DNA of 64,000 bases from Escherichia coli (GTDB lineage: Bacteria; Pseudomonadota; Gammaproteobacteria; Enterobacterales; Enterobacteriaceae). Made by a program: the position numbers. Below are positions 54,901-60,900 of the stretch, one piece after another. The stretch lies in assembly GCF_003790525.1 (NCBI RefSeq), contig NZ_CP033635.1; one strand, 5' to 3'. Numbering within the stretch: the first letter of the stretch is position 1; the number at the start of each line of letters is the position of its first letter.

Positions 54901-57900
54901 AGCCTCGATGAAGTTGACGAAGCACGCCGCCTGATTGAACGTGCCGGACGTGAAGTCGAGGAGATGATCGGTTACGAAATTCCCAAACCACGTATCGGCA
55001 TCATGCTGGAAGTGCCGTCAATGGTATTTATGCTGCCGCATCTGGCAAAGCGGGTCGATTTCATCTCTGTTGGCACCAACGATCTGACGCAATACATCCT
55101 GGCTGTTGATCGCAACAATACCCGGGTGGCGAACATTTATGACAGTCTTCATCCTGCAATGTTACGAGCTCTGGCGATGATCGCCCGGGAAGCGGAAATA
55201 CATGGAATCGATCTCCGTTTGTGCGGTGAAATGGCGGGCGATCCCATGTGCGTGGCAATCCTCATTGGGCTTGGGTATCGCCATCTGTCTATGAACGGAC
55301 GTTCTGTAGCGCGCGTAAAATACCTGCTGCGGCGCATTGATTTTGCTGAAGCAGAAAATCTTGCGCAGCGTAGTCTGGAAGCGCAACTGGCGACCGAAGT
55401 TCGCCATCAGGTTGCAGCCTTTATGGAGCGTCGCGGCATGGGCGGGCTGATTCGCGGAGGGTTATAGCGCGGATCATATACATATCTTTTAACGGTATCC
55501 GGCAACCAGCCTGGTCCCCTTGTGCTATTATTCGCACCTTTGGAGCGCCTGAAACCTGCGGCGCGCATTTCAATCGCTGTTCTCTTTCAGCGAAATAACA
55601 AGAACTTGTGGTGACAGATGACCAGTAGCTATCTGCATTTTCCGGAGTTTGATCCGGTCATTTTCTCAATAGGACCCGTAGCGCTTCACTGGTACGGCCT
55701 GATGTATCTGGTGGGTTTCATTTTTGCAATGTGGCTGGCAACACGTCGGGCGAATCGTCCGGGCAGCGGCTGGACCAAAAATGAAGTTGAAAACTTACTC
55801 TATGCGGGCTTCCTCGGCGTCTTCCTCGGTGGACGTATTGGTTATGTTCTGTTCTACAATTTCCCGCAGTTTATGGCCGATCCGCTGTATCTGTTCCGTG
55901 TCTGGGACGGCGGCATGTCCTTCCACGGCGGCCTGATTGGCGTTATCGTGGTGATGATTATCTTCGCCCGCCGTACTAAACGTTCCTTCTTCCAGGTTTC
56001 TGATTTTATCGCCCCACTCATTCCGTTTGGTCTTGGTGCCGGGCGTCTGGGCAACTTTATTAACGGTGAATTGTGGGGCCGCGTTGACCCAAACTTCCCG
56101 TTTGCCATGCTGTTCCCTGGCTCCCGTACAGAAGATATTTTGCTGCTGCAAACCAACCCGCAGTGGCAATCCATTTTCGACACTTACGGTGTGCTGCCGC
56201 GCCACCCATCACAGCTTTACGAGCTGCTGCTGGAAGGTGTGGTGCTGTTTATTATCCTCAACCTGTATATTCGTAAACCGCGCCCAATGGGAGCTGTCTC
56301 AGGTTTGTTCCTGATTGGTTACGGCGCGTTTCGCATCATTGTTGAGTTTTTCCGCCAGCCCGACGCGCAGTTTACCGGTGCCTGGGTGCAGTACATTAGC
56401 ATGGGGCAAATTCTTTCCATCCCGATGATTGTCGCGGGTGTGATCATGATGGTCTGGGCATATCGTCGCAGCCCACAGCAACACGTTTCCTGAGGAACCA
56501 TGAAACAGTATTTAGAACTGATGCAAAAAGTGCTCGACGAAGGCACACAGAAAAACGACCGTACCGGAACCGGAACGCTTTCCATTTTTGGTCATCAGAT
56601 GCGTTTTAACCTGCAGGATGGATTCCCGCTGGTGACAACCAAACGTTGCCACCTGCGTTCCATCATCCACGAACTGCTGTGGTTCCTGCAGGGCGACACT
56701 AACATTGCTTATCTACACGAAAACAATGTCACCATCTGGGACGAATGGGCCGATGAAAACGGCGACCTCGGGCCAGTGTATGGTAAACAGTGGCGCGCCT
56801 GGCCAACGCCAGATGGTCGTCATATTGACCAGATCACTACGGTACTGAACCAGCTGAAAAACGACCCGGATTCGCGCCGCATTATTGTTTCAGCGTGGAA
56901 CGTAGGCGAACTGGATAAAATGGCGCTGGCACCGTGCCATGCATTCTTCCAGTTCTATGTGGCAGACGGCAAACTCTCTTGCCAGCTTTATCAGCGCTCC
57001 TGTGACGTCTTCCTCGGCCTGCCGTTCAACATTGCCAGCTACGCGTTACTGGTGCATATGATGGCGCAGCAGTGCGATCTGGAAGTGGGTGATTTTGTCT
57101 GGACCGGTGGCGACACGCACCTGTACAGCAACCATATGGATCAAACTCATCTGCAATTAAGCCGCGAACCGCGTCCGCTGCCGAAGTTGATTATCAAACG
57201 TAAACCCGAATCCATCTTCGACTACCGTTTCGAAGACTTTGAGATTGAAGGCTACGATCCACATCCGGGCATTAAAGCGCCGGTGGCTATCTAATTACGA
57301 AACATCCTGCCAGAGCCGACGCCAGTGTGCGTCGGTTTTTTTTACCCTCCGTTAAATTCTTCGAGACGCCTTCCCGAAATTTTGCAATGTCCTGCAACGG
57401 CGTAAATAGTCCGGAAGATGCGCCGAAGAAATAGAAACTGGCCCTCGTCTTTTTTTCTCCTCGCTCCATACTGCCGGCATGAAAACACAACGTGGTTATA
57501 CGCTGATTGAAACGCTGGTCGCGATGCTGATTCTGGTCATGCTAAGCGCAAGTGGGCTCTATGGCTGGCAATATTGGCAGCAGTCGCAACGGCTTTGGCA
57601 AACCGCCAGCCAGGCGCGGGACTATTTGCTCTATTTACGTGAAGATGCCAACTGGCATAACCGCGACCACAGTATCAGTGTTATCAGGGAGGGGACGTTA
57701 TGGTGCCTTGTGAGTTCCGCTGCTGGGGCCAATACCTGTCATGGCAGTTCACCATTGGTCTTTGTGCCACGCTGGCCCGAAGTCGAAATGAGCGATCTGA
57801 CACCTTCGCTTGCTTTCTTTGGCCTGCGCAATACCGCATGGGCCGGGCATATTCGCTTCAAAAACTCAACGGGCGAGTGGTGGCTGGTGGTTTCGCCGTG

Positions 57901-60900
57901 GGGAAGACTCCGGCTTTGTCAGCAAGGAGAAACAGAAGGATGCCTGTAAAAGAGCAAGGTTTTTCTCTGCTGGAAGTGTTGATTGCTATGGCGATCAGTA
58001 GCGTATTGTTGCTGGGGGCTGCACGCTTTCTGCCTGCGTTACAGCGTGAAAGTTTAACGAGCACCCGTAAGCTGGCGCTGGAAGATGAAATCTGGCTGCG
58101 GGTATTTACCGTCGCGAAGCATCTCCAGAGGGCGGGTTATTGTCATGGCAGCTGTACCGGCGAAGGGCTGGAAATTGTCGGACAGGGTGACTGTGTCATT
58201 GTGCAGTGGGATGCGAACAGTAACGGTATCTGGGATCGCGAACCGGTAAAAGAGTCCGACCAGATTGGATTTCGTCTGAAGGAGCATGTGCTGGAAACGC
58301 TACGCGGTGCGACATCCTGTGAAGGTAAGGGCTGGGATAAAGTGACTAATCCGGATGCCATCATTATCGACACTTTTCAGGTCGTACGTCAGGATGTCAG
58401 CGGCTTCTCGCCGGTGTTGACGGTTAATATGCGTGCTGCCAGTAAGTCTGAACCGCAAACCGTGGTGAATGCCAGCTATAGCGTGACAGGATTCAACCTG
58501 TGAACCGCGAAAAGGGGGGCTCGTCACTGGCTCTGGTCCTGATGCTGCTGATTTTGGGTAGCTTGCTATTACAAGGAATGAGTCAGCAGGATCGCAGTTT
58601 TGCCTCTCGCGTGAGCATGGAAAGTCAGTCATTGCGCCGCCAGGCCATCGTTCAGTCGACGCTGGAGTGGGGAAAAATGCACTCCTGGCAGACACAGCCC
58701 GCAGTTCAGTGCTTACTGTACGCTGCCACCGGTGCCCGGGTTTGTCTGCGTTTATTGGCAGATAATGAGGCTTTATTGATTGCCGGTTATGAAGGCGTTT
58801 CGTTGTGGCGAACAGGCGAAGTCATCGATGGAAACATTGTTTTTTCGCCACGCGGCTGGAGCGATTTTTGTCCGCTGAAAGAGAGGGCGTTATGTCAGCT
58901 TCCCTGAAGAATCAACAAGGCTTTAGTCTGCCGGAGGTAATGTTGGCGATGGTGTTGATGGTGATGATTGTCACTGCGTTATCGGGTTTCCAGCGAACAT
59001 TAATGAACAGTCTTGCCAGCAGAAACCAGTACCAACAGCTCTGGCGGCATGGCTGGCAGCAAACGCAACTGCGTGCGATTTCGCCACCTGCCAACTGGCA
59101 GGTCAACCGAATGCAGACATCGCAGGCGGGATGTGTCAGCATCAACGTTACGCTAGTTTCACCCGGGGGCAGAGAAGGCGAGATGACCCGCCTGCATTGC
59201 CCGAATCGTCAGTAGTCAGGAGCCGCTATGTTAAGGGTCTACCATTCCAATCGTCTGGACGTGCTGGAAGCGTTGATGGAGTTTATTGTCGAACGCGAAC
59301 GGCTGGACGATCCTTTCGAACCAGAGATGATTCTGGTGCAAAGTACCGGTATGGCGCAGTGGCTGCAAATGACCCTGTCGCAAAAGTTTGGTATTGCGGC
59401 AAACATTGATTTTCCGCTGCCAGCGAGCTTTATCTGGGATATGTTCGTCCGGGTGTTACCGGAAATCCCCAAAGAGAGCGCCTTTAACAAACAGAGCATG
59501 AGCTGGAAACTGATGACTCTGCTGCCGCAACTGTTGGAGCGCGAAGACTTTACCCTGTTGCGGCATTATCTGACTGACGATAGTGACAAGCGAAAACTGT
59601 TCCAGCTTTCTTCAAAAGCGGCGGACCTGTTTGACCAGTATCTGGTCTATCGTCTGGACTGGCTGGCACAGTGGGAAACAGGACATCTGGTAGAAGGGTT
59701 GGGAGAAGCACAGGCCTGGCAAGCGCCGTTGTGGAAGGCGTTGGTGGAATATACCGACGAACTCGGGCAACCGCGCTGGCACCGCGCCAATCTCTATCAG
59801 CGCTTTATCGAAACGCTGGAGTCCGCGACGACCTGCCCGCCGGGGCTACCTTCGCGCGTCTTTATATGCGGTATTTCCGCGTTACCGCCTGTTTATCTCC
59901 AGGCGCTACAGGCGCTGGGTAAACATATTGAAATCCATCTCCTGTTTACCAACCCCTGCCGTTATTACTGGGGCGACATTAAAGATCCTGCTTATCTGGC
60001 GAAACTGCTGACTCGCCAGCGCCGACACAGTTTTGAAGATCGCGAATTACCGTTATTTCGCGACAGCGAAAATGCCGGACAGCTCTTTAACAGCGATGGT
60101 GAACAGGATGTCGGTAACCCGCTGCTGGCCTCATGGGGCAAGCTTGGGCGCGACTACATTTATCTTCTTTCTGACCTGGAGGGCAGCCAGGAGCTGGACG
60201 CTTTTGTCGATGTGACGCCAGACAACCTGCTGCATAACATTCAGTCTGACATTCTGGAACTGGAAAACCGCGCCGTTGCGGGTGTGAACATCGAAGAGTT
60301 TTCCCGTAGCGATAACAAACGCCCGCTTGATCCACTGGATAGCAGTATCACCTTCCACGTTTGCCATAGCCCGCAGCGTGAAGTTGAAGTTTTACACGAT
60401 CGCTTGCTGGCGATGCTGGAGGAAGACCCGACACTTACTCCGCGCGACATCATCGTGATGGTGGCCGACATCGACAGCTACAGTCCGTTTATTCAGGCAG
60501 TGTTTGGTAGCGCACCTGCGGATCGTTACCTGCCTTACGCCATTTCCGACCGTCGTGCGCGGCAGTCACATCCGGTACTGGAAGCGTTTATCAGCCTGTT
60601 ATCACTGCCTGACAGTCGCTTTGTGTCAGAGGATGTGCTGGCGCTGCTGGATGTGCCGGTGCTGGCGGCGCGGTTTGACATCACCGAAGAAGGGCTGCGT
60701 TATTTACGTCAGTGGGTCAACGAATCTGGCATTCGTTGGGGGATAGATGACGACAACGTTCGCGAGCTGGAACTCCCCGCCACCGGACAACACACCTGGC
60801 GATTTGGCCTGACGCGTATGTTACTAGGCTACGCGATGGAGAGCGCGCAGGGCGAGTGGCAATCGGTTCTACCTTATGATGAATCGAGCGGCTTAATTGC

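Follow-up and report, generated by a model that had tools for sequence, protein, structure and literature searches.

The 64-kb stretch of Escherichia coli DNA analysed here (64,000 nucleotides of contig NZ_CP033635.1, hereafter the window) carries four overlapping genes directly upstream of recC. We interpret this region as ppdA-ppdB-ygdB-ppdC of E. coli, an operon for the four core minor pilins that belong to the chromosomal type IVa pilus with PpdD as its major subunit, and assign a probability of about 0.88 to this interpretation. Three of the products are canonical prepilins. YgdB, the remaining one, has a pilin fold and a leader resembling that of a prepilin, but lacks the glutamate at position +5 (Glu+5). 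A previous interpretation made from the DNA alone (hereafter the sequence-only reading) had proposed minor pilins belonging to a cryptic type IV pilus or to a competence system. This proposal is upheld by NCBIfam equivalog models, which match all four products (E 1e-65 to 1e-99), by the pilin fold of YgdB, by the presence of cognate genes elsewhere on the chromosome and by the literature.

All four proteins begin with a short basic leader that ends in glycine (G6 in PpdA, G7 in PpdB, G10 in PpdC and G6 in YgdB) and is followed by about 20 uncharged hydrophobic residues. In PpdA, PpdB and PpdC the glycine at position -1 is combined with Glu+5 (GYTLIE, GFSLLE and GFSLPE, respectively) after leaders of 6-10 residues. 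These three proteins score 30.0, 35.5 and 28.3 bits against the N_methyl model PF07963, for which the curated cut-off is 21.2 bits, and they exceed the cut-off of TIGR02532 as well. Furthermore, PpdB is matched by NF007848 (E 1e-98), and PpdC by PF12528 (T2SSppdC, E 3e-30) and NF007660 (E 7e-65). When all six frames of the 64 kb were scanned for the class III signal motif with an uncharged hydrophobic tail behind it, three matches emerged, all of them in the ppd cluster, compared to a mean of 0.04 matches in the shuffled-sequence control. The sequence-only reading had ascribed prepilin-like N-termini to all four products and had quoted several of them, including GFSLPEVMLAM, which were indeed found in the sequence. 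The description applies in full to PpdA, PpdB and PpdC based on motif and hidden Markov model cut-offs, and to YgdB only with regard to the leader and its glycine. N-termini without the cleavage motif, which had been named beforehand as evidence against a minor-pilin set, were accordingly seen in YgdB and not in the other three proteins.

YgdB matched neither PF07963 nor TIGR02532, and the only match obtained was to DUF2509. We aligned 52 diverse representatives of the family, taken from a search of 1.84 billion proteins. Gly6 is present in 51 of the 52 members and positions 7-26 are uncharged in 49, the remaining three containing a charged residue. None of the 52 has an acidic residue at +5, where Leu, Ala, Gly, Ile or Val is found instead. 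Because Glu+5 is absent from every member, YgdB was classified as an atypical GspK/PilX-like pilin. Its missing glutamate is the exception expected of this type and not a refutation of the minor-pilin interpretation. Apart from this, YgdB and PpdC are fused in some public assemblies, in proteins of 228-237 amino acids that combine DUF2509, N_methyl and T2SSppdC. Many annotations also place the start of YgdB at an internal methionine, giving proteins of 121-125 amino acids from which the leader and the conserved Gly6 are lost.

Structure models of the monomers were made for YgdB and PpdA. YgdB is predicted to adopt the pilin fold, with a long N-terminal alpha-1 helix on an antiparallel beta-sheet, and the structures that match it best are minor (pseudo)pilins, GspI and GspK among them. 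The PpdA model shows the FimU/GspH fold. Its similarity to EpsH and GspH is nearly as high as that to FimU, and FimU and GspH match it much better than FimT does. The set contains an H/FimU-class member, PpdA, and a K/PilX-class member without Glu+5, YgdB. For PpdB, a profile of its orthologs gave a weak full-length match in the PDB to the GspJ-like Thermus pilin TTHA1219 (146 residues, E 0.004; PMC5131608). The same structure was the only, again weak, match of a single-sequence PDB search (E 0.034), and the match of PpdB to the gspJ model TIGR01711 is restricted to the N-terminus and far below the cut-off (E 2e-4). Weak N-terminal matches to GspH, GspJ and GspK models were found among the ppd products. 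Single-sequence PDB searches revealed no solved relative of PpdA, YgdB or PpdC, and none of the four proteins itself has a solved structure. In the profile searches against the PDB, PpdA showed matches to the N-terminal helix only, and PpdC and YgdB showed none. The fold and profile results agree with the published equivalences FimU=PpdA=GspH, PilV=PpdC=GspI, PilW=PpdB=GspJ and PilX=YgdB=GspK (PMC7248040, Table 1), from which the placement of PpdC in the PilV/GspI class is taken. Since the fold of YgdB does not separate GspI from GspK, its assignment to the GspK/PilX class rests on the absent Glu+5, the gene order and the literature. PilX-class proteins of type IV pili do not have the large insertion of GspK (PMC7248040), and neither does YgdB.

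The four pilin-like genes lie on one strand and in one operon, as is characteristic of a core minor-pilin set (Table 1). Their coding sequence boundaries agree with those that RefSeq gives for ppdA, ppdB, ygdB and ppdC where a genome has the identical locus, and the position given by the sequence-only reading, 57479-59215 directly upstream of recC, was exact. The head-to-tail overlaps that it had described measure 10 bp for ppdA/ppdB, 4 bp (GTGA) for ppdB/ygdB and 16 bp for ygdB/ppdC, with the GTG start of ygdB sitting in the GTGA that it shares with the stop codon of ppdB. This suggests translational coupling. The gap between ppdC and recC is 12 bp, and no terminator-like site was found at this junction or inside the four-gene unit. 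recC is conserved in this position, and it may be transcribed together with the ppd operon.

Table 1 Positions of the ppd operon, its flanking elements and other secretion-related or mobile features in the window.
Feature	Coordinates	Strand	Description
thyA	56500-57294		Upstream neighbour of the ppd operon
thyA intrinsic terminator	57312-57343	+	Hairpin 57312-57339 running into a T-run; RNA fold -16.6 kcal/mol, z = -3.7
Candidate CRP-S site	57357-57378	not assigned	TTCTTCGAGACGCCTTCCCGAA; 6/10 core positions of TGCGA-N6-TCGCA
Palindrome TTGCA-N6-TGCAA	57382-57397	not assigned	Perfect; conserved; ppdA promoter region
ppdA	57479-57949	+	156 amino acids; FimU/GspH-class minor pilin; leader MKTQRG, then YTLIE
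ppdB	57940-58503	+	187 amino acids; putative PilW/GspJ-class minor pilin; leader MPVKEQG, then FSLLE
ygdB	58500-58907	+	135 amino acids; PilX/GspK-class minor pilin without Glu+5; GTG start
ppdC	58892-59215	+	107 amino acids, smallest minor pilin; PilV/GspI class per literature; FSLPE after a 10-residue leader
recC	59228-62596	+	RecBCD gamma subunit; open reading frame and annotation; AGGAG ribosome-binding site in front
ETT2 type III secretion island	~2143-30069		Next to tRNA-Gly(ccc) at 2069-2142
SPI-1-type type III secretion secretin	5325-7028		In ETT2; apparently intact
Type III secretion ATPase, SctN-type	10236-11555		In ETT2
IS3-family insertion	~26828-28158	-	Inside ETT2; two overlapping transposase open reading frames, HTH_Tnp_1 and rve

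The machinery that such minor pilins would serve is encoded elsewhere on the chromosome. The sequence-only reading had suggested searching for genes of the hofB/hofC/hofQ class outside the window, and these were found: of 5426 complete E. coli genomes, 5424 contain ppdD-hofB-hofC and 5425 contain hofMNOPQ. In strain SMS-3-5, whose ppd locus is identical, ppdD, hofB (annotated as gspE), hofC and hofMNOPQ are annotated and intact, and Pfam confirms the T2SSE ATPase, T2SSF platform, secretin and Peptidase_A24 domains of this machinery. The same strain has an intact, annotated prepilin peptidase gene between rpsJ and bfr (L004:40885-41352, outside the window) that encodes 155 amino acids, in which Pfam detected a Peptidase_A24 domain and no other. 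This short allele occurs in 2255 of the 5426 genomes, including O157:H7. PilD-type peptidases are longer and contain an N-terminal methyltransferase region. As the 155-residue enzyme has the Peptidase_A24 domain only, the pilins of strains with the short allele may be cleaved but not N-methylated.

A working PpdD pilus has been built from hofBC, hofMNOPQ, ppdAB-ygdB-ppdC and gspO (bioRxiv 10.1101/856302). A strong assembly defect upon deletion of the minor pilins is described for the enterohaemorrhagic E. coli (EHEC) system in PMC7248040, citing Luna Rico 2019. Together with what is known of GspHIJK in the type II secretion system (T2SS) and of FimU-PilVWX in type IVa pili, the EHEC reconstitution suggests the following mechanism. 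A prepilin peptidase, GspO or PppA, would remove the leaders, after which the four proteins would assemble into a staggered priming complex within the inner membrane, with YgdB, devoid of Glu+5, on top together with PpdC and PpdB. PpdA would join this complex to the first PpdD subunits. The complex would then prime polymerisation of PpdD, which the HofB ATPase and the HofC platform would carry out through the HofQ secretin, and would remain at the pilus tip.

The operon is conserved far beyond the strain analysed here. The 2-kb stretch 57300-59300 was found in 5425 of the 5426 complete E. coli genomes with 95-100% identity. It is 100% identical in SMS-3-5, and the ppd products share the same WP accessions in SMS-3-5 and TUM1586. 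In each of the records inspected, 12 spread-sampled matched records and five annotated loci, all four genes had intact reading frames. In comparison to two other E. coli strains, the ratio of nonsynonymous to synonymous divergence (dN/dS) is 0 for ppdA, 0.30 for ppdB, about 0.2 for ygdB and 0.18 for ppdC, PpdA showing six synonymous and no amino-acid changes within the species. Between genera the ratio ranges from 0.06 to 0.36, with dS saturated, and nonsynonymous divergence is 10-20 times that of thyA (dN 0.16-0.26 versus 0.013 for the same genome pair). The overlaps, the leader glycine, Glu+5 and the cysteines are kept down to 25-30% identity. Synteny was sampled in four Enterobacterales loci besides the window, and the order thyA-ppdA-ppdB-ygdB-ppdC-recC is kept in Citrobacter-like contigs and in distant Enterobacterales, among them 'Enterobacterales bacterium CwR94' with a YgdB of only 28% identity. 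The low dN/dS and the conserved order indicate that the cluster is maintained by purifying selection and is not a relic.

Some local variation was observed as well. ygdB is a hot spot of divergence, accounting for 23-25 of the 42-46 coding nucleotide differences to the two other E. coli strains. Its dS is 0.16 compared to 0.015-0.08 in ppdA, ppdB and ppdC, and its product has 9-11 amino-acid differences to the two strains, compared to 0-3 in its neighbours and none in PpdA. This may reflect recombination or an allelic class. In CwR94, a Peptidase_M15 gene lies on the opposite strand between thyA and ppdA (L007:4259-4822), and the gap between ppdC and recC is widened to 119 bp. Horizontal acquisition of the ppd cluster was ruled out, as its GC content of 0.53 equals that of the neighbouring genes.

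Upstream of the operon, the thyA terminator folds better than each of 200 shuffled sequences (0/200 fold as well). Its hairpin is kept in an alignment of enterobacterial promoters and separates thyA from the ppd genes. Due to this strong terminator, the ppd operon needs its own promoter. Following the literature, the operon would be silent during ordinary growth and would require CRP-cAMP together with Sxy/TfoX at a weak CRP-S site upstream of ppdA. Induction by Sxy and CRP is attributed to Sinha 2009 and to Jaskolska and Gerdes 2015 in PMC12616744, and Sxy/CRP-S control has been described for ppdD and yrfD (PMC1635313). The best candidate site in the thyA-ppdA interval shares 13 of its first 15 positions with TTCTTCGTAACGCCTCGCAAAT, which is the best CRP-S-like site ahead of ppdD. 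The candidate contains C6 in one of its half-sites and G6 in the second, in agreement with the rule that enterobacterial CRP-S sites carry C6 or G6 and never T6 (PMC1635313), and orthologous promoters retain its TTCTTCG and TTCC-GAAA blocks. Judged by these sequence features, it is a plausible CRP-S site of the ppd operon. Shortly downstream lies the perfect palindrome TTGCA-N6-TGCAA, whose TGCAA and CTGCA elements are invariant or nearly so in six orthologous upstream regions, down to the genome with the 28%-identical YgdB. The palindrome does not fit the CRP or CRP-S half-site and could represent a -35 region or the site of another regulator. An Rfam scan gave no match.

Several results weigh against our interpretation of the locus. 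A sigma-70 scan revealed no consensus promoter on the + strand, which fits an activator-dependent promoter without being positive evidence for one. No CRP-S site (TGCGA-N6-TCGCA) with two or fewer core mismatches was found between thyA and ppdA, the best candidate agreeing at only six of the ten core positions. The fold of YgdB is about equally close to GspI and to the pilin domain of GspK. Lastly, natural transformation of E. coli via this system is very weak (PMC3330819).

It may be asked whether the four proteins could be accessory pseudopilins of a T2SS instead of components of a pilus. Pfam names PF12528 as type II secretion, the weak N-terminal matches are to GspH, GspJ and GspK models, the fold of PpdA is almost as close to EpsH/GspH as to FimU, and minor pilins of the two systems are reported to be able to replace each other (PMC7248040). 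T2SS operons, however, have their own gspH-I-J-K (PMC7248040), and the ppd operon acts as the minor-pilin module in the reconstitution of the PpdD pilus (10.1101/856302). Moreover, it tracks ppdD and the hof genes in at least 5424 of the 5426 genomes. SMS-3-5, despite its identical ppd locus, has only the lone prepilin peptidase gene between rpsJ and bfr, a position that we take to be occupied by the gspC-O operon in K-12. We consequently consider a T2SS function very improbable. A comparably small likelihood is given to the cluster being a relic in decay that has no function, is silent in the laboratory and persists only through its linkage to thyA and recC. The system is cryptic, as PpdD was not made by any of 72 ECOR strains unless sxy was expressed artificially and transformation was barely detectable (PMC3330819), and the ppd proteins evolve much faster than ThyA. 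Decay is nevertheless difficult to reconcile with the intact frames, the near-universal presence of the locus, a dN/dS of 0-0.3 within E. coli and the features retained at 25-30% identity, and the genes function when expressed (10.1101/856302; PMC7248040).

A further alternative retains the same machine and concerns what its tip does. The tip complex could mainly capture DNA, with PpdA as a putative FimT/ComN-like receptor in a competence pilus module that is functionally coupled to recC, rather than acting as a generic primer or adhesin. We regard this as possible but rather unlikely, given that PpdA resembles FimT much less than it does FimU and GspH, neither of which is known to bind DNA. 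It is compatible with, and not exclusive of, the assignment of the operon to the core minor pilins of the PpdD pilus.

Among known systems, ppdA-ppdB-ygdB-ppdC of E. coli K-12 and EHEC is the same locus, with the same RefSeq names, the same position between thyA and recC and a DNA identity of 97.7-100% across E. coli, and the window differs from it by alleles only. Compared to FimU-PilV-PilW-PilX of P. aeruginosa and PilH-I-J-K of Neisseria, the ppd genes follow the order A(H)-B(J)-YgdB(K)-C(I), and the system has no PilY1 or PilE partner (PMC7248040). Unlike the core minor-pilin genes of type IVa pili, the operon is unlinked to other pilus genes and adjoins recC. YgdB matches no PilX model by sequence, and it differs from GspK of the T2SS in having 135 amino acids and no large inserted domain, the matched GspK chain having 280 residues (PMC7248040). 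In contrast to gspH-I-J-K, the cluster does not lie within a gsp operon. Another related system is comNOPQ (HI0938-HI0941) of Haemophilus influenzae, four Sxy-induced pilin-like genes directly upstream of a co-oriented recC that are considered orthologous (PMC1635313, PMC12616744). Their sequence similarity is too low for BLAST (PMC1635313). We observed four pilin-like genes directly upstream of a co-oriented recC in the window and in the four other Enterobacterales loci, the Pasteurellaceae side of the comparison being taken from the literature. Haemophilus requires the comNOPQ genes to undergo natural transformation efficiently, whereas E. coli can barely be transformed.

Within the 64 kb, no ATPase, platform, secretin or peptidase gene of a type IV pilus or T2SS was found. 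The sequence-only reading had stated that the window contains no assembly ATPase or secretin gene, which is correct for these two systems but wrong as worded, since it overlooks the secretin and the ATPase of the ETT2 type III secretion island (Table 1). The closest complete genome found, TUM1586, is 100% identical over positions 30001-55000 of the window. In TUM1586, otherwise nearly identical to the window, the ETT2 secretin is split by the insertion sequence (IS) IS1, and SMS-3-5 has an IS1 in place of the entire island. The IS3-family insertion inside ETT2 is absent from both strains. An IS4 element that interrupts ygeA and a DUF4139-family gene between tas and lplT (~38342-39763 and 47167-49021) are present in the window and in TUM1586 and absent from SMS-3-5.

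The gene names, the minor-pilin role, the equivalences to other systems, the Sxy/CRP-S regulon and the linkage to recC are all already published. The gains of this analysis are modest: a call made from the DNA alone was right, YgdB emerges as the exception without Glu+5, and the ETT2 secretin and ATPase are added to the description of the window. The role of the filament is probably DNA uptake, either for competence or for the use of DNA as a nutrient. Sxy-induced, hofQ-dependent DNA uptake has been shown in E. coli (PMC3330819), and the operon is the counterpart of Haemophilus comNOPQ (PMC1635313, PMC12616744). Adhesion, a likely further role in some pathotypes, has been reported in the EHEC literature (PMC7248040). 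It may be speculated, with considerable doubt, that recC is part of the Sxy/CRP-S-induced transcript via the terminator-free 12-bp junction, whose place next to recC is kept from Escherichia to Pasteurellaceae, and that a DNA-capturing tip with PpdA as a FimT/ComN-like receptor would be co-regulated with RecBCD dosage. If this were true, the dosage of RecBCD, which decides whether incoming DNA is food or a substrate for recombination, would be co-regulated with the building of the pilus tip.

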